A stretch of DNA of 64,000 nt from a virus. A model generated the notes under the pieces. That model was not told the origin of the DNA. It ran no database searches and saw nothing but the letters and a program-made list of their open reading frames with translations. Both the position numbers and the translations under genes were made by a program. Numbering within the stretch: the first letter of the stretch is position 1; every line of letters begins with the position of its first letter. This document shows, piece after piece, positions 1 through 64,000 of the stretch. The stretch is taken from the IMG/VR virus record IMGVR_UViG_3300020185_000011; one strand, given 5' to 3'.

Positions 1-273
1 TATCTAAATGACAATTATAACGGTGGACAGACCTATTTTCCACCCAGTGAGACCTTCCCAGTTGGCCATGAGCATCCCCCACAGGCCGGTGAGGGACTTC
101 TTTTTCAAGGACTATACCTTGAACATGGGGTTTATCCAGTAAGAAGAGGCCCAAGACACACCATATCCATGTGGTTTACAGACATCGAAGATAAGATTAT
201 CATCGATACACCCATCAATCTAGACCAAAACCAACACCAAATCCAAAGAGAAAACTCCTACATCCCCCGCTAA
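1..273 (+). CDS. 2OG-Fe(II) oxygenase, C-terminal part (truncated by window edge)
   Basis: Manual frame-1 translation YLNDNYNGGQTYF...GLLFQGLYLEHGVYPVRRGPRHTISMWF, stop TAA 271-273; typical prolyl-hydroxylase-like C-terminal motifs. Confidence 0.8.
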   Translation, partial: YLNDNYNGGQTYFPPSETFPVGHEHPPQAGEGLLFQGLYLEHGVYPVRRGPRHTISMWFTDIEDKIIIDTPINLDQNQHQIQRENSYIPR

Positions 274-280
274 TCGTGCC

Positions 281-310
281 TTGACAATGCCCTAAGCTTT
301 TTGATATACT
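281..310 (+). promoter_or_regulatory. sigma70-type early promoter
   Basis: GCC-TTGACA (281-286), 18 nt, TGA-TATACT (305-310). Confidence 0.8.
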
Positions 311-338
311 ATGTGTATATTATGAAAAAGGATGAGGG

Positions 339-524
339 ATGAAGTACCTAAAAGAGATTACGGACTGGACTGAGTCGAAGTCTACAGTTCCAAACCATAC
401 TTACATAGTCAACGATGCTGGACAACTAGTTGGATACATCAAGACTGGAACCAAAGAAGAAATCATCTTCAAATCTCCAATGAAACAATTCTCTAAATCA
501 AGGAGAAAATTTATTACGCTCTAG
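339..524 (+). CDS. small hypothetical early protein
   Basis: 61-aa ORF directly after a promoter, with GAGGG upstream. Confidence 0.6.
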   Translation: MKYLKEITDWTESKSTVPNHTYIVNDAGQLVGYIKTGTKEEIIFKSPMKQFSKSRRKFITL

Positions 525-527
525 GCC

Positions 528-557
528 TTGACAATGCCATGCAGCTAATGATAGCAT
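528..557 (+). promoter_or_regulatory. sigma70-type early promoter (probably leaderless transcript)
   Basis: GCC-TTGACA 528-533, TAGCAT 552-557, ATG 564 six nt downstream. Confidence 0.65.
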
Positions 558-563
558 ATACTT

Positions 564-8178: not shown

Positions 8179-8184
8179 TAAATA
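8179..8184 (+). promoter_or_regulatory. T4-type late promoter heading the curli/cyclase operon
   Basis: ATAAATA, 5 nt, then ATG 8190; directly after the terminator. Confidence 0.65.
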
Positions 8185-8189
8185 ATTGC

Positions 8190-8486
8190 ATGAATGATAT
8201 ATTTGTTTTGATAGGTGAAGTGGGAGCCCCGATTGCAGGGAGCCTTGTGATGGGATTTTTTATCTTCATAGTCATCAAACAAATTTTAGAAGGCGTAGTT
8301 GACGACATTAAGACGTTAACAATGTTTTGCAACTCACTGGAGAACCGTGCAAGAACCATGTCAAATGAAATGATTAAGATTGACATGTTAGTTTCCGCTG
8401 CATTGGAACTCCGTCCCGATATAGAACGTGTAGCACGTGCAGAAAATTTTATTGAAGATGGAAAACTAGATGTGAGACGTGACTAA
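8190..8486 (+). CDS. small membrane protein upstream of csgF
   Basis: GAPIAGSLVMGFFIFIVIK TM followed by coiled coil. Confidence 0.75.
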   Translation: MNDIFVLIGEVGAPIAGSLVMGFFIFIVIKQILEGVVDDIKTLTMFCNSLENRARTMSNEMIKIDMLVSAALELRPDIERVARAENFIEDGKLDVRRD

Positions 8487-8593
8487 TGATAAATGAAATA
8501 GTAATGGTTGAATACAAATTCACTAGGGACTTTGTTCTTATGTGTTCATTAGGTCTCAACGTAGGATTTCTGTTAGGGTTATTGTTCATCTAA
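8486..8593 (+). CDS. 35-aa hydrophobic peptide (not in ORF track)
   Basis: MINEIVMVEYKFTRDFVLMCSLGLNVGFLLGLLFI; TAATG overlaps at both ends. Confidence 0.6.
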   Translation: MINEIVMVEYKFTRDFVLMCSLGLNVGFLLGLLFI

Positions 8594-8862
8594 TGGAAAG
8601 TATTGTAGCAGTAATAAGTGATTACGGATTTCCAATCGTTATGGCAGTTGGGCTAGGTTACTTCATCTATTACATTTGGTGGTTTGTAGGCGAGAAGCTA
8701 GAACCCGAGATTGAAAAACAACACTTTGCGTTAATCAAAGTCATCGACCAAGTAAGAATGTTAGACCAAGATTTGATTCGTCTCCAACAAAAGGTAGACG
8801 TAGTTCTCGAATATAAAGAGAACGCTAAGAAAGAGGCAGCTAAAAATGAGAATAGTAAGTAG
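8593..8862 (+). CDS. small membrane protein, paralog-like of 8190..8486
   Basis: YGFPIVMAVGLGYFIYYIW TM plus IDQVRMLDQDLIRL coiled coil. Confidence 0.75.
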   Translation: MESIVAVISDYGFPIVMAVGLGYFIYYIWWFVGEKLEPEIEKQHFALIKVIDQVRMLDQDLIRLQQKVDVVLEYKENAKKEAAKNENSK

Positions 8863-9304
8863 TATAATTTTAATGATGATGTGTATGTCTGCAAATGCAG
8901 ATGAAATTGTATTTGGATTTAAGAGTCCTAGTTTTAATGGGATAGGACAATCAGCTCATTATCTTACCATTGAAAATCAAGAAAAGTCAAGACGTGACAA
9001 GATAAGACAAGACATTGAAGATGCAATTGCAAAGGCAGATAGAGAAGCACAGAATACAACTCTTGCAAAATTTTTAAGAAATGTTGAGAGCAGAATTTAC
9101 GCTCAACTTGCAAAACAATTAGTAGAGAATATGTTCTCTAACGGTGAGGCTGCAATGTATGGAGTCTTCACTATCGAAGGTAATACGGTTACATATGAAC
9201 AGTTGGTTGGAGAAGATGGTGTGTCATTTATCAGATTGACTATTGTGTCAAGTGATGGAACGACAACAACATTGGATATACCAATAGGCACTGGGAGCTT
9301 TTAA
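8846..9304 (+). CDS. csgF: curli assembly protein CsgF-like
   Basis: Signal peptide then IVFGFKSPSFNG, ENQE; C-terminal TTTTLDIP; directly upstream of csgG. Confidence 0.85.
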   Translation: MRIVSSIILMMMCMSANADEIVFGFKSPSFNGIGQSAHYLTIENQEKSRRDKIRQDIEDAIAKADREAQNTTLAKFLRNVESRIYAQLAKQLVENMFSNGEAAMYGVFTIEGNTVTYEQLVGEDGVSFIRLTIVSSDGTTTTLDIPIGTGSF

Positions 9305-10213
9305 GTGAAGAATTTATGGATGGTGGGACTACTGGTCTTGCTCATCAGCGGGTGTGCTGCTATACCAAGCATGACGGATTCCTGTACATCATTGGTTATG
9401 GAACGAGTAGGTGAATGTGTCGAAATGGCAGAAGTAGTAAATATACCTACGTATCAAGAACTTGCAGACTTACCACCTGCTGACAATATGCCAGTAGTTG
9501 CAGTGTATGGGTTCTTAGATAAGACAGGACAAAGGAAGAGAATGGATAACATCGCATCATTCTCTACTGCAGTCACACAAGGTGCAGAATCATTTTTAAT
9601 TGATGCACTTAAGACTGCTGGAAAAGGTAAATGGTTTAGAGTAGTGGAACGTACAAGTTTAGACGCACTTGTAAGAGAGAGACAAATCATTCGTTCTACT
9701 AGAGAAGACTTTGCAAGACAGGAAGGTAATGAGGATGCTCCAACAGGCATTCAACCTCTCTTGTTTGCTGGTATCCTACTTGACGGTGGGATAATTGGTT
9801 ATGATACAAACATTGAAAGTGGTGGACGAGGCGCAAGATACTTAGGTATTGGTTCAAGTGTTTCCTATCGTAGAGATGTTGTCACAGTATCGTTGAGGGG
9901 AATATCAACTTTAACTGGTGAAATTTTACTCAATGTACAGACTACAAAGACGATTTTAAGTACAGGTGGTGGTTATGATGTATTCCGCTTCGTGGATATG
10001 GATACGAAGTTAGTGGAAATGGAAGACGGTATAGCAGCGAATGAAGGAGTTACGAAAGCAACTCGTTCTGCAATTGAGCTTGCTGTCTTAGAACTAATAT
10101 ACCAAGGACACGATAGAGGTTTTTGGGTAATTAAAGATGGACATCGTCATCCTCATGGAACACATGGGAGAAACGAATTACATCAAATAGAGGATAAACA
10201 AAATGAAGAATAA
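9305..10213 (+). CDS. csgG: curli secretion channel lipoprotein CsgG
   Basis: Lipobox LISGC; VAVYGFLDKTGQRK, FSTAVTQGA, WFRVVER..L..LVRERQIIR, GGIIGYDTN. Confidence 0.93.
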   Translation: MKNLWMVGLLVLLISGCAAIPSMTDSCTSLVMERVGECVEMAEVVNIPTYQELADLPPADNMPVVAVYGFLDKTGQRKRMDNIASFSTAVTQGAESFLIDALKTAGKGKWFRVVERTSLDALVRERQIIRSTREDFARQEGNEDAPTGIQPLLFAGILLDGGIIGYDTNIESGGRGARYLGIGSSVSYRRDVVTVSLRGISTLTGEILLNVQTTKTILSTGGGYDVFRFVDMDTKLVEMEDGIAANEGVTKATRSAIELAVLELIYQGHDRGFWVIKDGHRHPHGTHGRNELHQIEDKQNEE

Positions 10214-10934
10214 ATTATTCATTACATTATGTTTAACATTAGGGTTTTCTACTACAGCATTTGCTGGAGCAGACGACAATGAAATATGGTTGAATCAAAG
10301 CGGTACTGGTTTAGTATTAGATTTTACACAGAAAGGTTATGGAAACAAAGTTGGTCTAGATGATTTCTCGGGAACATCTGCTGATATGGTTTTAACTGGT
10401 GCATCTAATACGTTTACACTTGTCCAATTTGGAGACAATAACAAACTATACGGGCCTATGATTGCTGACTCAGCAACTATAAACCTTACCTTCACTGGTG
10501 ATTCAAATGTCATGGACTGGAACGTAGGATATGTTGGTAGTGCAGATAACTTAAATATGTTAGGAACTGTTACAGGTGATTCAAACACATTCGATATTGA
10601 TGTCGGATATGATGCATCTGCAGAATATCTTAACTGGGATTTAGCACTTACTGGTGACTCAAACGTATTCACTACTAAGATAGATAGTGACAATGCTGTT
10701 TGGAATTGGACTGTTACAGGTTCATCGAATGACATTAACACCAATCAATCAGATGCAACCGATAATAAAATCACAGCAATCTTAACTGGTTCAAGTAATG
10801 ATATAGACATCATTCAGAAATCGGGTTCAGATGCTGGTTGTCCAACTGGTCAATCATGTAGTGGTATTATCGATGTAACTTTCGTGACTTCTAATGCAGA
10901 TATTGACATCGTTCAGCAAGACTCTAACGATTAA
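10203..10934 (+). CDS. secreted curlin-like beta-solenoid repeat protein
   Basis: Signal peptide; repeated (Q/T)-x-G-x-x-N units (TQKGYGN, VQFGDNN, TGDSN x3, TGSSN x2); follows csgG. Confidence 0.75.
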   Translation: MKNKLFITLCLTLGFSTTAFAGADDNEIWLNQSGTGLVLDFTQKGYGNKVGLDDFSGTSADMVLTGASNTFTLVQFGDNNKLYGPMIADSATINLTFTGDSNVMDWNVGYVGSADNLNMLGTVTGDSNTFDIDVGYDASAEYLNWDLALTGDSNVFTTKIDSDNAVWNWTVTGSSNDINTNQSDATDNKITAILTGSSNDIDIIQKSGSDAGCPTGQSCSGIIDVTFVTSNADIDIVQQDSND

Positions 10935-12021
10935 TCTTTTACTTATTGGTTCACTTCAAGGTGAACCAATAGGTGAGATTACAGAACAAACAGGATACGC
11001 TGGGTTGCAGAGGGACGGTGAGAACACCGTCATCTCAGCGTCATATCTACCCGAAGTGCTAATGTATGATACAGCACAAACACAAAATGGGAGAATGAAA
11101 ATTCAGTTCCTTGGAGACGAGGAATTGGATTTAACAGAACACTCCAAGGTTTGGATAGACGAGGTTTACTATGACCCCGACCCATCCAAGTCCAAGATGG
11201 CCATAAGAATGGCACAAGGCACCGCTCGATTTGCTTCGGGTTTTGGTGGTAAAATAAACAAAGCGAACATAAATATAACTACACCTACTGCACAGATAAC
11301 AGTTAGAGGCACAGATTTCACAACTAGTATTGATGAAATCGGAAGGTCATTGATAATTCTGCTCCCCGATAAATGGGGTGGGCCCTCGGGAGAAATTGTA
11401 GTAAGTAATGCTGGTGGTTCGGTGACTATGAATGAAGCATATCAGACAACGATGGTTTCGACTTATGATGATTCACCTACAAAACCAGTTGTAGTAAATG
11501 GGATTACACCCAGTCTAATTGACAACTACTTCATTGTGTCCCCACCCGAAGAGGTGCAAGACCAAGTTGCAGAAGAAAGTAGTTCAGAGAATGATAGTAG
11601 TAACATTCTTGATGTAGACTTCCTAGAGTTTAACGACTTAGAGGAAGATTACTTCGAAGATGATGAACTAGAATATACAGAACTCGATAGAGACTTATTA
11701 GATATCGATTTCTTGCAAGATTTACTAGACGTTGTCTTAGAGATTGACCGTAAGGTTGGTATCGATAGAGAACGTGCAGCTTTTGGGTCGGTTCGAATAG
11801 AAGGAACGACCTCGGGGTTTGACAAAGACACTCAATACAATACAATTGTAGATAAGGGTCTTGGTCAAATATGGTTCTACAGGGAAGTGAATGGAATTAT
11901 TTCAATCAAGATTCCCATGTTTGCACAAGCAAGTATTAGAACCGTAACAGACGAAAAAGAGTCATCAATAAGGGTGGGTGATGGTTCGTCTTTAAATATT
12001 ACCATCACGCAAACAAACTAG
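10894..12021 (+). CDS. FecR-domain periplasmic protein
   Basis: LTEHSKVWIDEVYYDP, GTARFASG, ITTPTAQITVRGTDF; acidic C-terminal half. Confidence 0.85.
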   Translation: MQILTSFSKTLTINLLLIGSLQGEPIGEITEQTGYAGLQRDGENTVISASYLPEVLMYDTAQTQNGRMKIQFLGDEELDLTEHSKVWIDEVYYDPDPSKSKMAIRMAQGTARFASGFGGKINKANINITTPTAQITVRGTDFTTSIDEIGRSLIILLPDKWGGPSGEIVVSNAGGSVTMNEAYQTTMVSTYDDSPTKPVVVNGITPSLIDNYFIVSPPEEVQDQVAEESSSENDSSNILDVDFLEFNDLEEDYFEDDELEYTELDRDLLDIDFLQDLLDVVLEIDRKVGIDRERAAFGSVRIEGTTSGFDKDTQYNTIVDKGLGQIWFYREVNGIISIKIPMFAQASIRTVTDEKESSIRVGDGSSLNITITQTN

Positions 12022-12029
12022 GAGAATCT

Positions 12030-12176
12030 ATGAACCTATTAGAAAAATTCCGAGACTGGCATGAAACTCAATTATTTGGATTTCAGAAGGCTCTGCAATT
12101 GGATGACTACCACATGTTGTGGATAGCATTTGCAGAGGGAGTTATCTTATGTTTATTATTTCAATGGTTATTCTAA
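12030..12176 (+). CDS. 48-aa membrane peptide (not in ORF track)
   Basis: MNLLEKFRDWHE...DDYHMLWIAFAEGVILCLLFQWLF; AGGAG RBS. Confidence 0.65.
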   Translation: MNLLEKFRDWHETQLFGFQKALQLDDYHMLWIAFAEGVILCLLFQWLF

Positions 12177-12195
12177 TAAGAGAATTTGAAGAATT

Positions 12196-12834
12196 ATGAA
12201 AAAATTTTTATTATTAACTTTATTGATAAGCTTGCCGACATGGGCAGACGAAAATCATGTCCATGTTGAGCAGGTTGCAAGTGGAGATGTAGACCTTAAC
12301 ATAACACAAAAAGGTTATGATAATGAAATTAAGTTTACATTTGCACATAGTGGAAACACATTCAATCTATTGCAAACAGGAAATGGAAACTCTATTTCTT
12401 GGGTCTCTTACTGGGGGCCAGGAAAGTCTTGGGGTGGTGATGTAGACGGGACTAACAATACTGAAAACGTAGAACAAAGTGGTGGTGCAACATATGGTAG
12501 ACACATATGGGGAAACAGTAACACAGTAGATGTATACCAAAGTGGAACACATACACATAACATAGACGTTCACTCAAATTCAGTAGACCACGAAATACAT
12601 CAGTCGGGTAGTGGTTCACACTATGCACACACTTATTTCTATGGAAGTGCAACAGGTTCAGATAGTAGTATTATGCAGAAAGGCTCAGGAAGTCACAATG
12701 CACAAATTACATTACAAGGAAGTTATCCAACAACACTAAATCTTTTACAAGAAGGTTCAACAAACAAATCATATACACTAACACAAAATTGTCAAACAAC
12801 TACTGGTTGTTCAGTATCGGTGACACAGGAATGA
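12196..12834 (+). CDS. second curlin-like repeat protein (His-rich)
   Basis: Signal peptide; QxG repeats (TQKGYDN, LQTGNGN, YQSG, HQSGSGSH, MQKGSGSH, LQEG); C-terminal CQTTTGCSVSVTQ. Confidence 0.75.
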   Translation: MKKFLLLTLLISLPTWADENHVHVEQVASGDVDLNITQKGYDNEIKFTFAHSGNTFNLLQTGNGNSISWVSYWGPGKSWGGDVDGTNNTENVEQSGGATYGRHIWGNSNTVDVYQSGTHTHNIDVHSNSVDHEIHQSGSGSHYAHTYFYGSATGSDSSIMQKGSGSHNAQITLQGSYPTTLNLLQEGSTNKSYTLTQNCQTTTGCSVSVTQE

Positions 12835-13100
12835 ACTCAGAATGCCCACCCGAGTTTTACGAGTGTTATACTGAAGAACAGTTTAATGAGATATTAGACC
12901 TCTTTGAAGAGAATGAAATTGTAATGCCTGAAACACTTGAACCTTTGGGTGACGTTGAGGCAGCTATAAACTTTGGTTGGGAAGTTCTTTTTTTATCACC
13001 ATGGGAACTTGCGTACATAGCATTGCCTATGTCTGTACTTGCATTCTATGGACTATCTATCTATACAGTCTTTAAATGGGTACAGAAGAAATTCTCATAA
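12831..13100 (+). CDS. small membrane protein
   Basis: Acidic N-terminus, C-terminal TM; ATGA-coupled to the curlin gene. Confidence 0.6.
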   Translation: MNSECPPEFYECYTEEQFNEILDLFEENEIVMPETLEPLGDVEAAINFGWEVLFLSPWELAYIALPMSVLAFYGLSIYTVFKWVQKKFS

Positions 13101-13101
13101 A

Positions 13102-14943
13102 ATGTTTTCATGGAAATCAGTATTAATAACAATCGTAGCAATCTTTGCTCTAAAGATATGGAATCCTTATTTTGTTGAAAACATCTCATGGTCGTGGTTT
13201 GATTACCTTCACCAACAACAACCTGTAGTTTATGTTGACGATATTATACTTGTTGATATTGATGAGAAGAGTCTTGAGACTTTTGGACAGTATCCTATTC
13301 GCCGTGGTATTTACCGTGACATTCTTCTTAACACTCATTACTCTAACACTCACTTGTTCTCTACTCTTTTTTCGGAAAGTGATAGAGACCCTTCACAAGA
13401 CAATCTATTTGCTGAGGGGTTAGTCAATAGACTTACAATCCTTGGAGCTGCTCCAACATCACAAACTCAAAAAGGTTCTGCACCATTCGTAGGTAACTCT
13501 ACCTTTGGGGGTGGAAATGCAAAAGATTGGTTGTGGAATTTTACTGGAATTGTGTCGCCCATCGCGATGCTGATGGGGAATACTTATGGAGTCGGAGTTG
13601 TGACGGCTACTCCAGCTGTCACTGGAACACCTAATTTCGATGGAACTACGCGGTCTGTACCCCTTATGGTTACGGCAAATGGACAAGTATATCCATCTCT
13701 AGTTTTAGAGACATTACGTGCCTTACGTGACCAGCCTTCTTATCAAACTAAGATTACACCCGAAGCTGGAGTTGAATGGGTTAGAATGGGGAGAGACAAA
13801 CCTATTACAACAACTCCAACTTCAGACGTAATGGTTTCCTATTGGAATAAATTCCATAGAATATCTGCAGTTGACCTATCCGAATCTAATTTTGAGAATA
13901 AGATTCTTGTATGGGGTCTGACAGCTGAGGGTTTGAATAATCCAGTTTCAACCCCAAGGGGAGTAATGTATCCCCACGAAGTGCAAGCAAACCTGCTCCA
14001 AACCGTTTTGACAGGAGTTCAAATACAACAATCCTACTATCTTGAATCCTTAGAATCCGTTCTTCTTCTGTTAGTCCTAATAACGATATTGGGTTTGGTC
14101 TACAAAGCTCCCACACTTCTCTCGGGGGTAGGGAGTCTATTGCTTGTAGGATGCCAGATTGGCGGGAGTTATTATATTTGGACTTCAGAGCTCGTTCTTT
14201 TCGATACCTTTTTCTCATCGATTGCCTCCTTAGTGGTATTTGGTCATGCTTCTTTCAACAAATACTACATCACATATCAAGAAAAACAACAAATTAAGAA
14301 GCAGTTCCAAAAGTATTTATCACCCGACATGATTGAAGAGCTCCAAAAAGACCCATCAAAATTGAAGCTTGGTGGAGATAGAAAGGAACTTACCTTCATG
14401 TTTATGGACATCTGTGGGTTCACACCCATAAGCGAACACTACATGAAACAGGACGACCCCGAAGGATTGGTAGAACTAATTAACAAGTTCTTAGATATGC
14501 AGACTAAGATAATCCTAAATAATAATGGAACTATCGACAAGTATATGGGCGACTGTATTATGAGTTTTTGGAATGCACCTTTAGATTGTCCCGACCACGC
14601 CGAGATGGCAGTCAAGTCTGCAGAAGAAATACTAATAGCAACCAAGGAACTCAATGAAGAACTCAAACCACTCGGTCTTCCACCCATTAACGTGGGTATT
14701 GGGATTAATACTGGTGAGTGCATCGTTGGAAATATGGGGTCAGAACTTAGATTTGACTATTCCGTCATTGGAGATGCAGTCAACCTCGGTGCTAGACTTG
14801 AGGGACAAACAAGAAATTATGATGGGGTGGACGTGTTGTTGGGACAAGAAACTTATCTCCAATGTCCAAACAGAACATTCACAAAAGTTGATTCAATTAC
14901 AGTTAAAGGAAAATCAGAACCAGTCGTGGTTTACACTATCTGA
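13102..14943 (+). CDS. CHASE2-domain membrane adenylate cyclase (class III)
   Basis: N-terminal TM, ILVDIDEKSL..G.YP..R CHASE2 start, 3 TMs, FMDICGFT, DKYMGD, GIGINTG, DYSVIGDAVNLGARLE (K/D ATP-specifying residues). Confidence 0.92.
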   Translation: MFSWKSVLITIVAIFALKIWNPYFVENISWSWFDYLHQQQPVVYVDDIILVDIDEKSLETFGQYPIRRGIYRDILLNTHYSNTHLFSTLFSESDRDPSQDNLFAEGLVNRLTILGAAPTSQTQKGSAPFVGNSTFGGGNAKDWLWNFTGIVSPIAMLMGNTYGVGVVTATPAVTGTPNFDGTTRSVPLMVTANGQVYPSLVLETLRALRDQPSYQTKITPEAGVEWVRMGRDKPITTTPTSDVMVSYWNKFHRISAVDLSESNFENKILVWGLTAEGLNNPVSTPRGVMYPHEVQANLLQTVLTGVQIQQSYYLESLESVLLLLVLITILGLVYKAPTLLSGVGSLLLVGCQIGGSYYIWTSELVLFDTFFSSIASLVVFGHASFNKYYITYQEKQQIKKQFQKYLSPDMIEELQKDPSKLKLGGDRKELTFMFMDICGFTPISEHYMKQDDPEGLVELINKFLDMQTKIILNNNGTIDKYMGDCIMSFWNAPLDCPDHAEMAVKSAEEILIATKELNEELKPLGLPPINVGIGINTGECIVGNMGSELRFDYSVIGDAVNLGARLEGQTRNYDGVDVLLGQETYLQCPNRTFTKVDSITVKGKSEPVVVYTI

Positions 14944-15247
14944 ACAACCTAGTAATCTTCAGTGGGCTGCATTCATATCACTTCAATTTGCAGATATCTA
15001 TACCACATATCGTGGTCTCAAATACAGTTGTGTCAAAGAACTAAATCCTTTTCTTGGTGAATCACCTTCAGTTCCACAAATGTTTGCATTTAAGATTGCA
15101 GTTCTCATTCCTGCTATAAACTCAGATATTAAAAATGAGAGGGTAACACCATACGTTATGAATCAGATGAACTTCTTAATGTCTATGGTGATTGCAAGTA
15201 ATCTTGATATATTGAAAGATGCAAAAGAAAGATGCAGAAAATTCTAA
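14654..15247 (+). CDS. membrane protein (DUF5658-like); start uncertain, overlaps cyclase 3' end
   Basis: LQFADIYTTYRGL....ELNPFLG motif; the in-frame ATGs that precede this domain lie inside the cyclase gene (14654, 14774, 14819). Confidence 0.55.
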   Translation: MKNSNHSVFHPLTWVLGLILVSASLEIWGQNLDLTIPSLEMQSTSVLDLRDKQEIMMGWTCCWDKKLISNVQTEHSQKLIQLQLKENQNQSWFTLSEQPSNLQWAAFISLQFADIYTTYRGLKYSCVKELNPFLGESPSVPQMFAFKIAVLIPAINSDIKNERVTPYVMNQMNFLMSMVIASNLDILKDAKERCRKF

Positions 15248-15362: not shown

Positions 15363-15791
15363 ATGACACATTTCAATGATGTCTTCGGAAAATTCACAAC
15401 AGAATTTCCATTCGCAATCGGGTTCGACAGAACTCTTCAACTATTAGAACGTGCAGATGTACAATCTAATTCTAACTATCCACCTTACAATATTGTAAAA
15501 GTAGATGAGGAAAACTTCCAAATTGAACTTGCAGTTGCTGGATTCAATAAGAAAGAAATTTCAATCTCAAAAGAGAAAGAAGTTCTTATCGTTATGGGTA
15601 ATCAGAAAGACCAAGGAAATGCAAGGGAGTTCGTCCATCAAGGACTTTCTTCTAGAAATTTCACTAGAAAGTTTACACTAGCAGACGACATTGTCGTTAA
15701 AGGTGCAGACATGAAGGATGGTATTCTAAGCGTATCACTTGAGAGAGTAATACCCGAAGAAGATAAACCTCAAGAAATCAAAATTTCATAA
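15363..15791 (+). CDS. hsp20: small heat-shock protein Hsp20 (IbpA-like)
   Basis: NYPPYNIVK, IELAVAGF, F.R.F.LAD, DGILSV. Confidence 0.95.
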   Translation: MTHFNDVFGKFTTEFPFAIGFDRTLQLLERADVQSNSNYPPYNIVKVDEENFQIELAVAGFNKKEISISKEKEVLIVMGNQKDQGNAREFVHQGLSSRNFTRKFTLADDIVVKGADMKDGILSVSLERVIPEEDKPQEIKIS

Positions 15792-15862: not shown

Positions 15863-16390
15863 ATGACAGAAGAAGTAACAATGGGGTTAGAAATTATTGA
15901 AGGGGAAACTAGAGTACCCGAAGTAATCCTACCACAGAGAGTCGGTGGTGAATTTGTAACACTAGACACCCAACAACAGTTTGCTGGTAAAAGAGTGATT
16001 GTATTTGGATTGCCTGGCGCATTTACACCAACATGTTCAACTCAACAACTGCCTGGCTTTGATGAGAACTTTGAGAAGTTCCAAGAGAAAGGTATTGATG
16101 AGATTTACTGTGTATCAGTTAACGATACATTCGTAATGAACTCATGGTTCGAATCATTAGGTATCAAAAATGTTTACCCTCTTCCCGATGGTAACGGTGA
16201 GTTCACTCACTTAATTGGTGCAGAATGTTCTAAATCAAATCTTGGTTTCGGATACAGGTCTTGGAGATATGCAGCTGTAGTTAACGATGGAGTAATTGAA
16301 AAAATCTTTATCGAAGACGGTTACACTGATAATGCTGAGTCCGACCCTTACGAGGTTTCAACACCCGAAAATGTATTAGAAAATCTTTAA
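15863..16390 (+). CDS. peroxiredoxin (Prx5/redoxin family)
   Basis: LPGAFTPTCS, CVSVNDTFVM, PDGNGEFT, RSWRYA. Confidence 0.93.
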   Translation: MTEEVTMGLEIIEGETRVPEVILPQRVGGEFVTLDTQQQFAGKRVIVFGLPGAFTPTCSTQQLPGFDENFEKFQEKGIDEIYCVSVNDTFVMNSWFESLGIKNVYPLPDGNGEFTHLIGAECSKSNLGFGYRSWRYAAVVNDGVIEKIFIEDGYTDNAESDPYEVSTPENVLENL

Positions 16391-16434: not shown

Positions 16435-17712
16435 ATGATGAGTGATAATAAATATTTTCAATACAACCTAGAAGACCTTCACCGAAACAGTGAAAGTAAA
16501 CAGTTTAACTACATTACTTTCTTTGCTGGTGGTGGGGGTTCTTCATGTGGTTACAAACTAGCTGGTGGTGATGTAAAATACATGAATGAATTTCAACAGA
16601 TTCATGTCGACACCTACCTAGAAAATTTCCCTAATACAGTTCATGAATGTAGAGACATCAAAGAAGTCACTGCAGAAGGAATCATGGAGCTGACTGGACT
16701 TAAAAAATACGAATTAGATATCATGGATGGGTCACCACCTTGTCCACCATTTTCTATGGCAGGTTCCAAGAAAGAAGGATGGAACCAAGAGAAGATGGCA
16801 TATGGTATGAAACAACAGAACATCGAAGACCTTACATGGGAAATGATTAGGATTGCCGAAGGGTTGATGCCTAAAGTTATAGTATGTGAGAACGTGAAGG
16901 GTCTCTCGATGGACTATGCAAGAGACCATCTAAACAAGATGGTAAATGATTTTGAAGCACTAGGATACTCAGTGACTTGGAAAATCATGAAGGGACATGA
17001 ACATGGTGTTCCACAAAAAAGAGAAAGAGTATTCATGGTTGGTGTACGTGATGATGTACTTGAAGGTATTGGAATGCCTTGGATGTGTATGTCTTCAGTC
17101 TTCCCCGACCCAGTTAAAGAATTTGCATCCATTGAAGATGCAATTCAAGATTTAGAAACCGATGAAGAGAACATCAAGGATGCAGCTTATCTAGAAACTG
17201 CAATGAACGAATCTTCAAAGGGACATTGGGTAAATGGTTTCGAACAACATCCCGATGAGAAGTTCAAGGATTGTGGCCCATGTGGTGGAGTTACTCCTGT
17301 ACTACATGAGAGAGACAATCAAGCATATGTTTCTATTGGAGACCATATTGTTAAACCTTGGTTTCAAGAACAGATTAAGAACGGACACGTACAACCCGAA
17401 GATGAAAAACATTCTTACTACATGTCAAGAATTGTTCCTAAACATCTACCAGCTCACTCATTGACTGAACAGGGTTGTCAACCAAAATTTATGGGTGGTA
17501 ATCATTTCCACCATGGTGGTAAGAGAATCTACACACCAAAAGAAATGGTGAGATTAATGACTCTACCAAATGATTATAAAATGACTGGTGATTACAACGA
17601 CAAGGGTGCAAGAATTGGATTGATGGTAGCACCACTATGTATGTACTACTTAGTTGAAAACATCAAAGGACAAATATTAGAACCATGGAATTCACTGCAA
17701 CAAAAGACTTAG
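16435..17712 (+). CDS. C5 DNA cytosine methyltransferase
   Basis: Motif I FFAGGGG, IV GSPPCPPFS, VI ENV, VIII PQKRERVF. Confidence 0.93.
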   Translation: MMSDNKYFQYNLEDLHRNSESKQFNYITFFAGGGGSSCGYKLAGGDVKYMNEFQQIHVDTYLENFPNTVHECRDIKEVTAEGIMELTGLKKYELDIMDGSPPCPPFSMAGSKKEGWNQEKMAYGMKQQNIEDLTWEMIRIAEGLMPKVIVCENVKGLSMDYARDHLNKMVNDFEALGYSVTWKIMKGHEHGVPQKRERVFMVGVRDDVLEGIGMPWMCMSSVFPDPVKEFASIEDAIQDLETDEENIKDAAYLETAMNESSKGHWVNGFEQHPDEKFKDCGPCGGVTPVLHERDNQAYVSIGDHIVKPWFQEQIKNGHVQPEDEKHSYYMSRIVPKHLPAHSLTEQGCQPKFMGGNHFHHGGKRIYTPKEMVRLMTLPNDYKMTGDYNDKGARIGLMVAPLCMYYLVENIKGQILEPWNSLQQKT

Positions 17713-18686
17713 GATTTAAAGAAACATTTAAGAAATGGAACGGTAAGTATCTTACTGAAGATTCTTATGACACTGTTATCTCATCCATTGGTGTAGAAGA
17801 TGATACTATTAAAATATACAAACCTCATGGTACACTCATGGGGGAAACTTTACTTGCATGTATAGTAAAGAAAGCATACAAAGGTAAAACTTATAGAACA
17901 GTTAAAGACACTTTGTTCTCTATAGATGATACATCTACAATGAGAGCAAATGCAGCCGGGCCTATCGACCACGAAGAAATGAAAGCAAAAGGATTAATCG
18001 AAGGTAAAGACTATGTCCTAAGAACTCCAAACAGTTATTATCCATTAAAGAAGAACGGTGAGTTCAATCGTATTGCAGAAGCAAATGAGATTCATTCAGT
18101 TCTAATCGGGTATAAACGTGGCAGATTCACAGGAATGATTAAGGCAAGTGGTTGGATGGATAAGAAAGCAAACAAAGAAAAGTTTGAAACCCTTCAACAG
18201 ATTGCACAAGTAAATGAACAAGCATTAAAGACTGCAGTTCCCGAGATATGGAAGATGCAAAGAACATTTGCAGATGAATGTATAGAAGAGAAATACCATA
18301 TTGGTGGAGCTCCTATGACAGCGTTATCTGCAAACAAATATTCAACTGGTGGGACTGCAAAGATGTCTGCACATTTGGATGGTAAAGATTTAGAGTTCGG
18401 AATGACAACTATGTGTGTCTTCCGTATTGGAGAATTTGGGGGTGCATACTTATGTTTCCCTAGATATGGTATTGCTATTGAAGCAGATGATGGAGACGTA
18501 CTGATTGCAGATTCAAATGAATTGCACGGTGTATCACCTATCACTGGTGAAGGAGTAAGGTTATCATGTGTTGCATATTGTGATGAACATGTTGCAACTA
18601 AAGGGAGAGCTGGAAAGACTGAGAATCCTATCGGCCCTCATGCTGGAAAGTATGAGGAGAAAGGTTCACTTGACAGCTTTTTCTAG
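17685..18686 (+). CDS. TET/JBP-family 5-methylpyrimidine dioxygenase
   Basis: HLD (HxD), GGAYLCFPRYGIAI, ELHGVSPI, RLSCVAY; overlaps the C5-MTase by 28 nt. Confidence 0.85.
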   Translation: MEFTATKDLGFKETFKKWNGKYLTEDSYDTVISSIGVEDDTIKIYKPHGTLMGETLLACIVKKAYKGKTYRTVKDTLFSIDDTSTMRANAAGPIDHEEMKAKGLIEGKDYVLRTPNSYYPLKKNGEFNRIAEANEIHSVLIGYKRGRFTGMIKASGWMDKKANKEKFETLQQIAQVNEQALKTAVPEIWKMQRTFADECIEEKYHIGGAPMTALSANKYSTGGTAKMSAHLDGKDLEFGMTTMCVFRIGEFGGAYLCFPRYGIAIEADDGDVLIADSNELHGVSPITGEGVRLSCVAYCDEHVATKGRAGKTENPIGPHAGKYEEKGSLDSFF

Positions 18687-18769: not shown

Positions 18770-19906
18770 ATGACAACACAACAACACCTGTCCGCAGGTT
18801 TAAAAAAGAGCTACGATATAGAACTCACCCGAGAACTATGTCCACCCAAAGAAACTTATCAAACTTGTAAATTCAAGAAAAGACTTGTAGTACACAAGGA
18901 TAAGATTTACATCATTGACCCTATTACAGGCGACCCATTGCAACCGAGAGAAGAAATCAATCTCACTCAAAATGTTATTGAGATTAAAACTTCATTCAAG
19001 TACAGAGGTTGGTTACATTCAGAAGAACCATTATTTGTACAAGTCGCTGCTGATGGAAACTTCATTCTAAGAAGTGGATTCAACAGATTCAAAGCTGCAA
19101 CGGAAAGTGGTTGGGAATATCTATTAGTAGATGTGTATGAAGATGCACCAGTCCAAAAGGACAACATTGCATTTAAGTATGTTTGTAACAATACTAACCT
19201 ACCATCTAAACCTAATAAAGATATTGACTTCATTAGAGGTGTAGTAGAAGCGATTGATGCAAATGCAATCAATCAAGAAGTCGAAGAAGAGATAATCTCA
19301 TTCTTAAAACAAATCACATCAACAGATGATGGTATGCGTTTAAAGACAGATGAAGAGATTGTCAATTATGTCGATGTAACAGAAGTAAATGACGATGGTT
19401 CAGAGAGTACTACTCAAGAACTATCAACTTCATGTTTACTATATAAGGTCTACAGACAGAGAGGAAAGAACAGAAACATTCTACCGTTAGATGGTAAATA
19501 TGCAAACGAAATTCTTAACAAACTTGGAAAGGGATGGGCTGGAGCAAGAAACAAAGATGTAACTGAGTTAGGTTATTGTTTTGAGAAAGGGAATAGTCTA
19601 CACAGAATATTGTGGGATGGTTTAAAACTTTATGGTAAGTATCAATCACCAATCATGTTATATGGATATGTTGAGAACCCATCATCAATGACTTTAAAGT
19701 CTGATAGAGCAGAAACATTTGCAAGATACGAGTGGTTCATAGAAGAATGTGTAAGAAGATTTACGGATTCTCTTGACTATCATAAGATGGGACTTAACTT
19801 CATGGAACTTGAATGGAAGTTCAGAGAAATCTTTCAGTGGGGTGGATTCATACCTCAAGATAAAACACCACATTGTGATGAAACTGGAAGGATAATACAA
19901 CTATGA
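18770..19906 (+). CDS. ParB/Srx-like N-terminal domain protein
   Basis: LQPR...SFKYRGW...LRSGFNRFKAA resembles the ParB GxxR motif; AAGGAG RBS. Confidence 0.55.
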   Translation: MTTQQHLSAGLKKSYDIELTRELCPPKETYQTCKFKKRLVVHKDKIYIIDPITGDPLQPREEINLTQNVIEIKTSFKYRGWLHSEEPLFVQVAADGNFILRSGFNRFKAATESGWEYLLVDVYEDAPVQKDNIAFKYVCNNTNLPSKPNKDIDFIRGVVEAIDANAINQEVEEEIISFLKQITSTDDGMRLKTDEEIVNYVDVTEVNDDGSESTTQELSTSCLLYKVYRQRGKNRNILPLDGKYANEILNKLGKGWAGARNKDVTELGYCFEKGNSLHRILWDGLKLYGKYQSPIMLYGYVENPSSMTLKSDRAETFARYEWFIEECVRRFTDSLDYHKMGLNFMELEWKFREIFQWGGFIPQDKTPHCDETGRIIQL

Positions 19907-20439
19907 TTATCATGGTTGGTGGAGTTCCATGTTCGGGAAAGTCAACTCTCATGAGAAGACTTATCTCTAGGTTAGATGAACCCAACCTAATTGAACCGAT
20001 GAAACTATTTAAGTGCCAAGAACATGGTGACGTATTAGTAGTCGGTCAATATCCCGAGGGAGAGACATTCGGTGGAACTGATAAGCTCTCTCACGGTTCT
20101 ATACCACAATTTAGAGAATTCATTGAGTGGGCAAACATTGCATATAAACATGTATTAATCGAAGGTGATAGATACTTTCGAGGTAAGGATATAGAATGGT
20201 TAATAGACAATCACGAAGCACGCGTTTACGTACTAACAGTAGAGTTATCGGAAGAACACAATCGTCACGCAGAACGTGGAGACACACAGTCCGAAGTGTG
20301 GTTGAAAGGGAGACGGAGTCAGATAAACAACATATTAACAAACATGAATCTACTAGGACAATTGCAGATTCGTGATAACAATTCTATAGAGACTTCTATG
20401 AAAATTGAGGAAGAAATATATGACAGAATTATTTCATAA
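19903..20439 (+). CDS. P-loop kinase, resembling phage hydroxymethylpyrimidine DNA kinases
   Basis: GGVPCSGKST, VGQYPEGETFGGTDKLS, IEGDR, R..RG..Q lid. Confidence 0.75.
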   Translation: MIIMVGGVPCSGKSTLMRRLISRLDEPNLIEPMKLFKCQEHGDVLVVGQYPEGETFGGTDKLSHGSIPQFREFIEWANIAYKHVLIEGDRYFRGKDIEWLIDNHEARVYVLTVELSEEHNRHAERGDTQSEVWLKGRRSQINNILTNMNLLGQLQIRDNNSIETSMKIEEEIYDRIIS

Positions 20440-30381: not shown

Positions 30382-30768
30382 ATGTCAGAACTCACAGACC
30401 TAATTGCTGTTCAACAAGCTACAAAAGCAAAACTAGAGGATAAACTAGATTGGCATAACGGTGTAAACAAAACTTATTTTGTGGGCCAATCCAAATCAGA
30501 AACTTCTCCAGCAGAGTGGACAGGAGCTGGTAGAGCAGGATTCCTACAATGGCATAATGCACAAGGTGTTAACGAAGACGATTTAGACCAACTATTCGTA
30601 GATATGTATGCTGAATATATTGATACTGAAATTGGAGGTGCTAACGCCCTTGAAGTTAATGCAGATTTAGTTACAACAATGCAAGCATCAATCACTTCTT
30701 ATGCAGCCGACATTGCACACCTTCAATCAAGAGTCGATGCTGGTGATACAACTCTAGCAGACAGCTAA
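30382..30768 (+). CDS. hypothetical late protein
   Basis: 128 aa, GGAG RBS, TAAATA upstream. Confidence 0.65.
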   Translation: MSELTDLIAVQQATKAKLEDKLDWHNGVNKTYFVGQSKSETSPAEWTGAGRAGFLQWHNAQGVNEDDLDQLFVDMYAEYIDTEIGGANALEVNADLVTTMQASITSYAADIAHLQSRVDAGDTTLADS

Positions 30769-49207: not shown

Positions 49208-49515
49208 TGACTACCAACATAGATTTACTATCAGTAATTGAGCTCATTGAAAAATGGCACTACGACAGAAACCTTATTGAAGGTGCAACAGATAAAGACC
49301 AAGTATGTAAACTTATCCAAGAGGTGGGTGAACTATCGGACAATGTCTGTAAAGAAAAAGATGTAGCCGATGATATTGGTGACATCATTGTCGTATTAAT
49401 TAACATTGCAGCTAGAAATGGACTAGGTCTACAACATTGTCTAAATGTTGCATATCATGACATCAAAGACCGTAAGGGACGTATGGTCGATGGGATTTTT
49501 ATTAAGGAAGAGTAA
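49207..49515 (+). CDS. mazG: MazG-like nucleotide pyrophosphohydrolase
   Basis: KLIQEVGEL, DDIGDIIVVL, AY.DIKDRKG. Confidence 0.85.
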   Translation: MTTNIDLLSVIELIEKWHYDRNLIEGATDKDQVCKLIQEVGELSDNVCKEKDVADDIGDIIVVLINIAARNGLGLQHCLNVAYHDIKDRKGRMVDGIFIKEE

Positions 49516-52792: not shown

Positions 52793-53175
52793 TGAATCAA
52801 TTAACTATGGGTCTTCTAGTAGCAGTGGGATTGTTTTGTTTCTTTTTGTATAATGAGAATCAAACACTTACCCAAAATAACATTAAGTTAGAAGCTGCAG
52901 TAGAAGAACAACAACGTGCTATGGAAGTAATGAAAGAACAGTTTGAGAAACAGGGTAAAGCATTACAAAACATGAGTCGTAAAAATGCATCGATTGAAGC
53001 AGAAAAGGCGGAGTATCTACAGATATTCCAAAGACATAATTTAAACGCTCTTGCAGTTGCAAAGCCTGGTATAATGACAGGTAAGTTCAATCGTGGAACT
53101 GATAGAGTATTTGAGGGAATAGAAGATGATACACAAGAAATTTATAATCTTGACGAGTCTAATCGCGACGATTAG
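52792..53175 (+). CDS. putative inner-membrane spanin (Rz-like)
   Basis: Single N-terminal TM plus long coiled coil; overlaps the downstream lipoprotein. Confidence 0.6.
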   Translation: MNQLTMGLLVAVGLFCFFLYNENQTLTQNNIKLEAAVEEQQRAMEVMKEQFEKQGKALQNMSRKNASIEAEKAEYLQIFQRHNLNALAVAKPGIMTGKFNRGTDRVFEGIEDDTQEIYNLDESNRDD

Positions 53176-60971: not shown

Positions 60972-61195
60972 TGTATAACGGACTGAATGGTGTGCATCTA
61001 GCATCCAATATACCTGTCTCTATAGAGCTTAATGACGTAGAGATGTCGTATGCATGTGATAGTGACCCTGTTAGCTGTAACGCTAGTTGGGAGACTATGT
61101 GTGCGATGGTGCTTGAGCGTCTGGGTATCGAGATTATAGACTGCATAGAACTAGAAGAAATCGTCATAAAGGGGGTTGCAAAACCCTTTCATTGA
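60971..61195 (+). CDS. hypothetical early protein
   Basis: 74-aa ORF. Confidence 0.55.
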   Translation: MYNGLNGVHLASNIPVSIELNDVEMSYACDSDPVSCNASWETMCAMVLERLGIEIIDCIELEEIVIKGVAKPFH

Positions 61196-61355
61196 TGGTA
61201 TACTAGTAGTATGAAATAGAAACATGGGAGTTGAACTGAGGATTGTACCGTGGATTGCTAAGAGTTAAGTCTCAGTGGGTTGTTACCGAAAGCACGCGTG
61301 GTGATGAGAAGCGCCACCCCTCTAGGCCCTGCTATAGCAGGGTTTCCTAGGGGCC

Positions 61356-61572: not shown

Positions 61573-61684
61573 AACAGTGCTGTGGGACTCCTAGGGTATC
61601 TGGGCAGCAACTCAACCCCCTACCTCTATAGCTCTATGAAGCATTCTATATGACCACAGTAAATTTTTTTTTTGGTAAATTTTT

Positions 61685-62316: not shown

Positions 62317-62532
62317 ATGAAAAAATATTTAATTACGATACTATCAGTATTCACTATGACCTCTTGCAGTACATTGGATAAAGCAATTGAAATAGAAGAA
62401 ATCATCAATGACCCCTACCGTACACCCTTAGAGGAACGATTAGAACGATACGAAGCCTGTGAGTGGTTATTAGAGTTGGATACATTCGAACAATATTTGA
62501 TGTGTATATGTCCTACGTGTCATATATCATGA
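62317..62532 (+). CDS. small putative lipoprotein
   Basis: MKKYLITILSVFTMTSC lipobox-like; TGG-TATAAT 6 nt upstream. Confidence 0.55.
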   Translation: MKKYLITILSVFTMTSCSTLDKAIEIEEIINDPYRTPLEERLERYEACEWLLELDTFEQYLMCICPTCHIS

Positions 62533-62831
62533 GGCATGGTTCAATGACACACTCTTTTAGTGGTAAGAAACGTAAAACCAATGCATGGAAGACTCGTACT
62601 AAGACCGCTAAGGATTATAATTGGAATGTGAGTGTGAAAACGGTAGCTCCTTACGTGCGTGAGAGTGTATACTATCCGTCGGCGTCACCTTGTGATTCCC
62701 CTAAGACATCAAATACCCTAAGTAAAGAAGAACGTCAACGTATCTCGTCCGAGTATACCATTGCACCGTCTTATAATAAGGGTGCGTATCAAGTAATACC
62801 TCGGAATGAGGTCAAACACATAGGGAGATAG
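62529..62831 (+). CDS. conserved T4-like phage protein
   Basis: YTIAPSYNKGAYQVI motif. Confidence 0.7.
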   Translation: MRHGSMTHSFSGKKRKTNAWKTRTKTAKDYNWNVSVKTVAPYVRESVYYPSASPCDSPKTSNTLSKEERQRISSEYTIAPSYNKGAYQVIPRNEVKHIGR

Positions 62832-62837
62832 TAACTT

Positions 62838-63005
62838 ATGAGATTATTTTTAGTGTCGTACCTAGGATGTAGAATATTTAAAGACAGAAGTCCCGCTGGT
62901 GTACCACGTTTCATCGTAGAGACACCGAATTCGGTTCGATTGTACTCTTCCACATGGTATAACCTACCACAAATAAAAGGATTTATTGAAAATGAGTTTC
63001 TTTGA
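62838..63005 (+). CDS. 55-aa hypothetical protein (not in ORF track)
   Basis: GGGAG RBS; MRLFLVSYLGCRIFKDRSPAG... Confidence 0.55.
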   Translation: MRLFLVSYLGCRIFKDRSPAGVPRFIVETPNSVRLYSSTWYNLPQIKGFIENEFL

Positions 63006-63126
63006 TATTCTTTTTCTACCTTTTTACGTGTTTGCATTCTGTGTAACCCTAGGATTATGGTTTACACTCTTTATATTCGTCCATTATCAACTGAAAAAAT
63101 ACCTATCTTACAGGAGAACTAAATAA
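62992..63126 (+). CDS. 44-aa membrane peptide (not in ORF track)
   Basis: MSFFDILFLPFYVFAFCVTLGLWFTLFIFVH...; AAGGA upstream. Confidence 0.45.
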   Translation: MSFFDILFLPFYVFAFCVTLGLWFTLFIFVHYQLKKYLSYRRTK

Positions 63127-63130
63127 AACC

Positions 63131-63310
63131 ATGAGTACTGAATTAATATTAATACATATCGGGTTTATATCTGCACTCGTTTACTTTGTGTTCCGTAGTG
63201 GACAAAGAAGTGGACGTGAAGAGATGGTGAGCCAACTCATTCACGACAAATTTGTCGACCCAAAGGCTATAATAACTTTCTACCGTGGCAATGAAGACAC
63301 TGTAGAGTAA
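63131..63310 (+). CDS. 59-aa membrane peptide (not in ORF track)
   Basis: TAAATA-N5-ATG; MSTELILIHIGFISALVYFVFRSG... Confidence 0.55.
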   Translation: MSTELILIHIGFISALVYFVFRSGQRSGREEMVSQLIHDKFVDPKAIITFYRGNEDTVE

Positions 63311-63326
63311 CAACAAAGGATATATT

Positions 63327-64000
63327 ATGAGAATAATTGGAATTAATTCCAGCCATGATACCAGTTTATGTATCATGGAAGATGGAGAGGTAGTAGAACT
63401 CTTCGAAGAAGAAAGAGAAAGACGTGAAAAGTATTATTCACCGACTTTAGATGCACCTCACTTACATGTAATCGACTCTAAAGGTCTTGCAGATTCATTG
63501 GTGGATGAGGAAGGTAACGTACAGGGTGAGTTAGTCTTCGCATCTTTCGATAGACGTGACATGAAACTCGAAATGGATAAAGATTATCTCATGGATAATC
63601 GTCTCATTGCAATAGAGTTTGCAGATGCACTTGCAAAGGAACAATTAACCGAAGCAAGAATCCAAGAATTAATTAAAGCCTATCCCAAAGTGGGACTTAA
63701 AGAAGACTGGCACGAAGAAATGGATGAAACCATTCATGATGAGATGTGTAAACAGTTCTTTGACGTAGACCAGTATCACTTTGACACAGAACATCACATG
63801 TATCATGCATACAGTGGTTATTATCTCAGTCCTTTCTTTGAAAAGGGTGAGAATGCAATAGCAATTGCATGGGACGGTGGTGGTGCTAAGTGCTATCATG
63901 AGACACATCCGAACTATCAAGAGATTGAATCCATTTGGAAGTGTGACTTTGACACTAAGACTATTGTTCCCCAGTGGAAGAAGATGTCTAATCACCGTAT
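63327..64000 (+). CDS. carbamoyltransferase (NodU/CmcH family), N-terminal part, truncated by window edge
   Basis: Manual translation MRIIGINSSHDTSLC...EEERERREKY...EHHMYHAYSGYYLSPF...AIAWDGGG. Confidence 0.85.
   Translation, partial: MRIIGINSSHDTSLCIMEDGEVVELFEEERERREKYYSPTLDAPHLHVIDSKGLADSLVDEEGNVQGELVFASFDRRDMKLEMDKDYLMDNRLIAIEFADALAKEQLTEARIQELIKAYPKVGLKEDWHEEMDETIHDEMCKQFFDVDQYHFDTEHHMYHAYSGYYLSPFFEKGENAIAIAWDGGGAKCYHETHPNYQEIESIWKCDFDTKTIVPQWKKMSNHR

Follow-up and report, generated by a model that had tools for sequence, protein, structure and literature searches.

Covered or Purged: Short Nuclease-Type Motifs and GC[C/T] Cytosines in the Genome of a T4-like Marine Phage with a C5-Methylase/TET Cluster

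Introduction

Phage C5-cytosine methyltransferases (methylases) and the TET dioxygenases encoded next to them act at GpC[C/T] in clades I and II; those of clade I also act at GpCG, and never at GpCA (PMC8256090). Clusters of clade I/A have a characteristic neighbourhood, with a heat shock protein and a redoxin upstream and a P-loop kinase or a glycosyltransferase downstream, and their methylases carry an insert in the target-recognition region relative to clade II (PMC8256090). The sole product of TET43 was 5-hydroxymethylcytosine (5hmC), and only 5-methylcytosine (5mC) and 5hmC were measured for clusters without a glycosyltransferase (PMC8256090). In recent work, ParB partners were found to activate phage T-dioxygenases (PMC13229309). 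Regarding the purpose of such modifications, a preprint by the discoverers of phage TETs considers that genome-wide protection by a GpC-limited modification "seems unlikely" and describes it as unknown which DNA is targeted, that of the phage or that of the host (10.1101/2023.12.21.572611). Here, we describe a methylase/TET cluster in the IMG/VR virus record IMGVR_UViG_3300020185_000011, together with the pattern of short motifs that are missing from, or tolerated in, the genome that carries it; the stretch analysed, referred to as the window, comprises 64,000 nucleotides.

The window corresponds to bases 28089-92088, on the minus strand, of the 145,922-bp record, which is estimated to be approx. 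80% complete. The source is a T4-like marine myovirus whose PolB is 47% identical to cyanomyovirus gp43. With Melnitz, a cultured OM43 phage, it has 77 open reading frames (ORFs) in common in synteny at a mean amino acid identity of 43%, and the major capsid proteins are 68% identical. The phage was found in marine metagenomes of 13 studies, for which the public data are contigs or Illumina reads.

Avoided Sites and Their Expected Numbers

A sequence-only reading of the window had proposed that sites resembling restriction sites are avoided throughout unless a GpC overlaps or abuts them. Expected counts were derived from a null model in which synonymous codons were shuffled within each gene 100-200 times, so that both the proteins and the codon usage were kept; ORFs were called for this model, and the genome is 94% coding. 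Unless stated otherwise, the counts given below refer to the whole 145.9-kb genome, and those in the next paragraph were compared with 200 shuffles. A site is called covered when a cytosine in GC[C/T] context lies inside it or on the adjacent base pair.

When observed and expected counts were divided by distance to the nearest GpC, the avoidance was upheld genome-wide. Two motifs are entirely absent: GATC (0 vs. 424 ± 15 expected) and GGWCC (0 vs. 75 ± 6), which the sequence-only reading had found missing from the window and which are missing from the whole record as well. Others are absent, or nearly so, when no GC is at hand: CCGG without an overlapping GC (0 vs. 58), CCWGG without an overlapping GC (0 vs. 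67 ± 7), and CCWGA/TCWGG without an adjacent GC (1 vs. 349 ± 13). For GATC, GGWCC, and CCGG, and for unprotected CCWGG and CCWGA, the depletion reaches z scores of -9 to -29. CCWGA/TCWGG with an adjacent GC occurs 69 times (64 expected), and CCWGG with an overlapping GC is 2.2-fold enriched (51 vs. 23 ± 4, z +7). The related words CCWGT/ACWGG are not depleted (622 vs. 511).

The individual copies tell the same story. The window contains exactly the 12 CCWGG that had been noticed from the letters, each at the position given for it and each written GCCWGG or CCWGGC (Table 1), and in the whole record 51 of 51 CCWGG are GC-flanked. Instead of the "roughly 28" CCWGA/TCWGG first reported to lie near a GC, 29 were counted (16 CCWGA and 13 TCWGG), the single copy described as 2 nt away being that at 61120; in the whole record, all 70 have a GC within 2 nt. 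CCGG is present twice in the window and four times in the record, always GC-flanked. With coverage restricted to GC[C/T], 12/12 CCWGG, 28/29 CCWGA/TCWGG, and 2/2 CCGG in the window are covered, and GTGCAC does not occur there.

A scan of all 5-mers returned the same words and, in addition, CCTCC/GGAGG and CGACG/CGTCG as the only ones without a GC-distant copy; for comparison, GC-free 5-mers on average have 84% of their copies without a GC within 2 nt. Unprotected CCTCC occurs once (134 expected), and unprotected CGACG does not occur (84 expected). CCGG, CCTCC/GGAGG, CGACG/CGTCG, and GTGCAC thus extend the list first drawn up, and there are about ten purged motifs in all. Since CCTCC and GGAGG are both purged on either strand and codon pairs are bent against the genome's own usage, selection acts on DNA and not on translation. 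Avoidance of Shine-Dalgarno sequences was considered as a cause of the loss of GGAGG and was ruled out: CCTCC is equally purged, and the survivors are GC-adjacent.

The bending of codon pairs is readily visible, and the spellings pointed out in the sequence-only reading were borne out by counting. Pro-Asp/Glu is written CCC-GAN in 159 of 181 pairs; Gly-Pro is never GGT/GGA-CCN (0/43), though GGT and GGA make up 85% of Gly codons; GAT never precedes C; and Ser-Gly is written TCG-GGN, with TCW-GGC also used. To these can be added Pro-Gly, which is CCW-GGC in 37 of 48 pairs, yet GGC accounts for only 7% of Gly codons.

Table 1. Coordinates of modification-cluster genes and of tolerated or exceptional sites, numbered along the window.
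Feature	Position	Strand	Remarks
Hsp20	15363..15791	+	PF00011, E 5e-19; upstream neighbour typical of clade I/A C5-methylase/TET clusters
Redoxin/AhpC-type peroxiredoxin	15863..16390	+	PF08534, E 2.5e-27; upstream neighbour typical of clade I/A clusters
C5-cytosine DNA methyltransferase	16435..17712	+	PF00145, E 2e-49
TET/JBP-type 5-methylpyrimidine dioxygenase	17685..18686	+	PF12851, 50 bits (cut-off 34.9)
378-aa protein	18770..19906	+	N-terminal ParB/sulfiredoxin-fold domain, by fold search
P-loop nucleotide kinase (Ploopntkinase3)	19903..20439	+	PF18751, E 1.2e-7
Tolerated CCWGG, example	12418..12422		gCCAGG, outer C in GCC context
Other tolerated CCWGG	16013, 16052, 27456, 32906, 33694, 33868, 34542, 40322, 47773, 53065, 54008		All GCCWGG/CCWGGC
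CCWGA/TCWGG, the only copy in the window without overlapping or abutting GC	61120..61124	-	Reads CCAGAcGC, one-base gap
CCTCC/GGAGG, the only copy genome-wide without adjacent GC[C/T]	30634..30638	-	GGAGG on the plus strand
CGACG	53166..53170	+	Neighbour in GC[A/G] context only

Reach and Context of the Protection

How close the GC must be can be read from CCWGA. The motif is found at about the expected frequency when a GC overlaps it (gCCWGA, 50 vs. 44) or abuts it on either side (gcCCWGA, 12 vs. 9; CCWGAgc, 7 vs. 9), whereas with a one-base gap it is found once (36 expected) and with a larger gap or no GC not at all (0 vs. about 310). Protection thus falls off in a single step, from a survival of approx. 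1 when a GC overlaps or abuts the motif to approx. 0 at a gap of one base. The GC is effective in three registers (-1/0, 0/1, and 6/7), and CCCWGA survives only if G precedes it, which makes the dinucleotide GC, and not a single flanking base, the determinant.

Not every GC protects, and the base that follows it decides. CCTGC is informative in this respect: its internal GC always reads GCA on the bottom strand, and the survival of its copies follows the next base. In this genome, copies with GCA only are nearly missing (3 vs. 63) and those with GCA and GCG are reduced (7 vs. 21), whereas those with a GC[C/T] are close to expectation (100 vs. 111); the corresponding counts in Melnitz are 1 vs. 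92, 1 vs. 25, and 121 vs. 117. Consistently, CCTGCA is found twice (59 expected), and GTGCAC is absent both here (0 vs. 21) and in Melnitz (0 vs. 19), where CTGCAG is also lost with GCA only (0 vs. 39) and found with GC[C/T] (14 vs. 22). CGACGc, whose GC reads GCG on the motif-facing strand, does not occur (0 vs. 16). Rescue is thus afforded by GC[C/T] and not by GCA, and rescue by GCG is weak or nil. GATC and GGWCC begin with G on both strands, so that any GC next to them necessarily reads GCG there, which explains why they are never rescued. The idea that GpC modification masks defence sites, which formed the core of the sequence-only reading, is therefore supported by the rescue, by its replication in other phages, and by the control described below, but its extension to every GpC is not. 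GC[C/T] cytosines occupy 3,088 positions and make up 5.5% of cytosines, with an average spacing of 47 bp.

The palindromes that contain GC deserve a separate comment. They had been described as common, and the window holds 537 TGCA, 130 AGCT, and 54 GGCC; this is correct for TGCA, which stands at 2.5 times expectation, whereas AGCT and GGCC are merely not purged. TGCA was considered as a protected palindrome and was ruled out, as the GCA context gives no rescue and GTGCAC is purged. Its share of all GC dinucleotides is 34% here (1341 vs. 871 expected, z +27), 27% in Melnitz (z +9.7), 14% in the pelagiphage HTVC008M (z -9), and 60% in the contig fragment L099, both of which are introduced below. 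In no other GC context do both strands read GCA, and TGCA is therefore presumably never modified. Its excess might mean either that modifiable GCs are costly or that they are lost through deamination, in the way that methylated CpG decays through deamination in vertebrates.

The Methylase/TET Gene Cluster

The window encodes a cluster that could provide such a modification (Table 1). The methylase aligns with PF00145 over positions 1-323 of 324 (169 bits), and its PC (DGSPPCPPFS) and ENV (CENVKG) catalytic motifs are intact. Compared with the enzyme of Melnitz alone, which has a clade II-type layout, it has a 22-aa insert in the target-recognition region. The footprint points to GC[C/T] as the target of this enzyme. 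The TET gene has the same orientation, and its reading frame overlaps the 3' end of the methylase gene together with the stop codon. The kinase is 55% identical to its Melnitz homologue, and the methylase 54%. Proteins of the Ploopntkinase3 class have been proposed to phosphorylate 5-hydroxymethylpyrimidines in DNA.

Searches of Pfam, PHROGs, and PDB sequences gave no significant match for the 378-aa protein, the weak match to ParB_N having an E value of 0.04. Its AlphaFold2 model (predicted local distance difference test, pLDDT, 77) was matched by Foldseek to the N-domains of ParB, KorB, and Noc with E values of about 1e-5, and the N-terminal domain is accordingly modelled as a putative ParB/sulfiredoxin (Srx) fold; none of these searches gave an assignment for the C-terminal half. 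Its gene sits between those of the TET and the kinase, in a cytosine-directed cluster of clade I/A type. No glycosyltransferase or amino-acid:DNA transferase was detected in the cluster with Pfam and PHROGs.

Two further observations concern the window as such. A module comprising curli CsgF/CsgG, curlin-FecR, and a CHASE2 adenylate cyclase lies at 8179-15247 and is also present in Melnitz and HTVC008M. Moreover, window and genome record disagree at 16 positions (within 8625-8673, 23468, 49216-49244, 53914, and 61207-61214), seven of them inside 50 bp at 8625-8673; none makes or breaks a purged motif.

Related Phages with and without the Methylase and TET Genes

Melnitz (MZ577097.1), cultured on Methylophilales sp. 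H5P1, carries both the methylase and the TET. At 43% mean amino acid identity, the synonymous sites of the two genomes have diverged to saturation. Melnitz obeys the same rule. All 68 CCWGG of Melnitz are covered (uncovered, 0 vs. 66; covered, 68 vs. 25, z +11.6, 2.7-fold), as are all 15 CCGG (uncovered, 0 vs. 48), and GGWCC is absent (0 vs. 62). CCTGA is reduced (31 vs. 206) with GC-adjacent survivors, whereas CCAGA is not avoided (440 copies). Melnitz also purges CGCG, AACGTT, CTGCAG, and AGCT, and it retains 23 GATC. The publication on this phage mentions only a possibly protective methylase (PMC9004378).

The rule extends to uncultured relatives. Among 80 IMG/VR contigs with a homologous methylase (721 kb), 132 of 142 CCWGG are GC-flanked, and in the subset of 77 with a methylase identity of 53% or more, coverage extends to 124 of 125 CCWGG. 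The methylase-bearing sub-lineages purge CCTGA, CCAGA, or both, and each time the survivors are GC-adjacent. Since lineages purge CCTGA and CCAGA separately, a single CCWGR enzyme is ruled out, and the "CCWGR" that had been predicted as one host specificity is instead a union of lineage-specific motifs (CCTGA/CCTGC, CCAGA, and CCWGG). CCTGC[A/G] falls together with CCTGA, so that the specificities may resemble CCTG[A/C/G] and CCAG[A/G].

As a relative without the cluster, the pelagiphage HTVC008M (NC_020484.1), whose genome is complete and contains neither PF00145 nor PF12851, does not follow the rule. Of its 136 CCWGG, 111 are uncovered (101 expected); CCWGA, CCTGC, and GGWCC are not avoided, and there is no excess of TGCA. 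It purges another set, namely TCGA (2 vs. 194), CCGA, GATGC, CACTG, and TCAAGA. In HTVC008M, 42 of 51 CCGG are GC-flanked.

HTVC008M was used as the control because the available UvsX-anchored IMG/VR contigs (L086-L165), six of which obey the rule and four of which do not, are only 6-34% complete, and a missing methylase there proves nothing. In the six that obey it (L099, L127, L135, L113, L102, and L147), 37 of 37 CCWGG are covered by a GC[C/T] cytosine; CCAGA is avoided in all of these except L113. No methylase was found on the available DNA of the six, which includes 4.6-6.7 kb upstream of PolB; the cluster may lie elsewhere in their genomes. In the closer relatives of this phage, the methylase sits upstream of PolB, and in Melnitz it sits downstream.

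Interpretation and Alternative Explanations

The pattern observed, with its size against the null, its reach, its dependence on context, and its conservation, would be explained by two anti-nuclease measures that have shaped each other, a combination which we refer to as "cover or purge" and regard as very likely: modification at GC[C/T] blocks nucleases at covered sites, and selection removes the uncovered copies. In this scheme, the C5-methyltransferase would mark GC[C/T] cytosines after replication, the TET dioxygenase would then oxidise the methyl group, and the ParB-fold protein and the P-loop kinase would probably elaborate the oxidised group further. A modified cytosine in a site, or on the next base pair, would block sequence-specific nucleases, most likely restriction-type enzymes of the host population. 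Through the choice of synonymous codons and codon pairs, selection would eliminate those copies of targeted motifs that cannot be covered, and where the protein forces a site, as in Pro-Gly, it would install a covering GC (CCW-GGC). The activity at GpC[C/T] that is assigned here to the methylase and TET is taken from published work on homologues (PMC8256090). We infer that the phage's own DNA carries the modification and that host nucleases are the selecting agents; as to the final product, a bulky or charged adduct is plausible, given that protection reaches the base pair beside the motif and that a kinase and a ParB-fold gene follow the TET.

Several observations weigh against this interpretation. 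The motifs purged by HTVC008M reach 0.2-0.37 of their expected number in GC[C/T] context, as against 0-0.06 in other contexts: for CCGA, 13 covered copies are found vs. 42 expected and three uncovered vs. 117, and for GATGC 19 covered vs. 85 and four uncovered vs. 109. Given this weaker trend in a phage without the two enzymes, flank effects that the null model does not capture could account for a minor share of the GC association. The trend may also point to another, as yet unrecognised form of protection linked to GC, or to nucleases specific for certain flanks, and it is far below the contrast between approx. 1.0 (covered) and approx. 0 (uncovered) seen in the phage described here. L099, L127, and L135 obey the rule with no methylase on the fragment, the fragments being 7-22% complete. 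Moreover, coverage by GC[C/T] does not save every motif. In Melnitz, AGCT is 3-fold depleted. In this genome, covered CCGG (4 vs. 21) and covered CCTCC (7 vs. 17) remain below expectation, and GCAGCA/TGCTGC is purged (7 vs. 96; Melnitz, 70 vs. 94) despite its bottom-strand GCT. The loss of GCAGCA could reflect another nuclease that is not blocked by the modification, or an effect of repeats. With GCAGCA purged, Ala-Ala is almost never spelled GCA-GCA in this genome.

Among the alternatives, the one that survives best concerns only the nature of the protecting group, which might be nothing more than 5mC or 5hmC, the one-base reach then being due to ordinary contacts of nucleases with flanking bases. 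The products reported for TET43 and for clusters without a glycosyltransferase agree with this (PMC8256090), as does the failure to detect a glycosyltransferase or an amino-acid:DNA transferase in the cluster with the searches described above. On the other hand, a kinase of the hydroxymethylpyrimidine class and a ParB-fold protein are encoded right after the TET, the kinase being present in Melnitz too, and a cytosine outside the recognised bases gives undiminished protection (12 vs. 9 and 7 vs. 9, as given above for the abutting positions). A methyl group outside the recognition site rarely blocks a restriction enzyme. On balance, we consider a plain 5mC or 5hmC group unlikely.

A second alternative places the selecting nucleases in the phage, which would encode them in order to degrade host DNA, its own genome being immune through purging and modification. 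There is a precedent in T4, whose endonucleases II and IV act on unmodified cytosine DNA; several nuclease-like genes are present in these phages, according to the annotation of Melnitz; and the purged asymmetric motifs change between fairly close lineages, a change that could follow from a gene of the phage just as well as from one of the host. This origin of the selection nevertheless appears quite improbable. Ten or so motifs are purged at once, including the classical palindromes GATC, GGWCC, CCGG, and GTGCAC; among the genomes compared, there is no candidate gene whose distribution follows that of the motif sets; and HTVC008M has much of the same gene repertoire yet purges a different set.

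Finally, it could be argued that there is no modification and that the nucleases simply have longer or flank-sensitive sites (e.g., HCCWGGD), so that G/C-flanked copies are not targets, as the residual purged-motif copies of HTVC008M, richer in GC[C/T] contexts in spite of the missing enzymes, might suggest; but at least seven unrelated motifs would then need one flank rule, this rule would be a dinucleotide in three registers on both sides instead of one base, it would separate GC[C/T] from GCA and GCG just as the measured methylation motif of the family does, it would let the base after the internal GC of CCTGC decide survival, and covered copies survive at approx. 1.0 here as compared with 0.2-0.37 in HTVC008M, which leaves this explanation with hardly any probability.

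If "cover or purge" holds, its consequences reach beyond this phage. The enzymes and the GpC[C/T] motif are already known; our literature searches found no paper describing the genome footprint. The footprint suggests how modifying approx. 5% of cytosines can protect a whole genome, namely because the remainder is purged, and it thereby offers an evolutionary answer to the doubt expressed in the preprint: the phage genome is built around the modification, and the protected contexts match the motif of the enzymes. It would also answer the question of whether TET modifications limited to GpC are made on phage DNA and have an anti-restriction role. The genome sequence alone would then reveal the modification motif (GC[C/T], not GCA or GCG) and its steric reach (the site and one base pair on each side), and the nuclease repertoire of the host population would become readable, including unreported CCTG[A/C/G], CCAG[A/G], CCTCC, and CGACG specificities in streamlined marine bacteria. 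This would amount to a sequence-only method for uncultured phages, applicable to modification motifs, reach, and host nuclease specificities.

Comparison with Known Systems

Among described systems, the clade I/A clusters of Burke 2021 share with the present one the adjacent C5-methylase and TET, the Hsp20 and redoxin genes upstream, and the P-loop kinase downstream; the methylases of that clade have a target-recognition insert, to which the insert seen here relative to Melnitz may correspond. Furthermore, the GC[C/T]-not-GCA context derived from the footprint equals the measured motif of methylation and hydroxylation. In that work, the enzymes were studied in Escherichia coli and the composition of phage genomes was not examined, whereas here the genome itself shows the co-adaptation. 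Melnitz has the same methylase-TET-...-kinase cluster and the same cover rule; however, its cluster lies directly after PolB, in a clade II/B layout, and its methylase has no insert.

Classical restriction-site avoidance is similar in that short palindromes (GATC, GGWCC, CCGG, and GTGCAC) are depleted through the choice of synonymous codons and codon pairs. Here, however, a GC[C/T] that overlaps or adjoins the site abolishes the avoidance altogether, covering GCs are installed (GCCWGG is in 2.2- to 2.7-fold excess), and asymmetric 5-mers (CCTGA, CCAGA, CCTCC, and CGACG) are purged on both strands. With the glucosyl-hydroxymethylcytosine of the T-even phages, the system has in common a C5-cytosine modification directed against sequence-specific nucleases. 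In T-even phages, all cytosines are replaced before replication, and hence no purging of sites is needed. In the phage described here, approx. 5.5% of cytosines are eligible, the modification would be post-replicative and sequence-specific, and protection would depend on the purging of uncovered sites. It is probable that sparse, sequence-specific hypermodification and purging at the level of codons are two halves of one co-evolved strategy.

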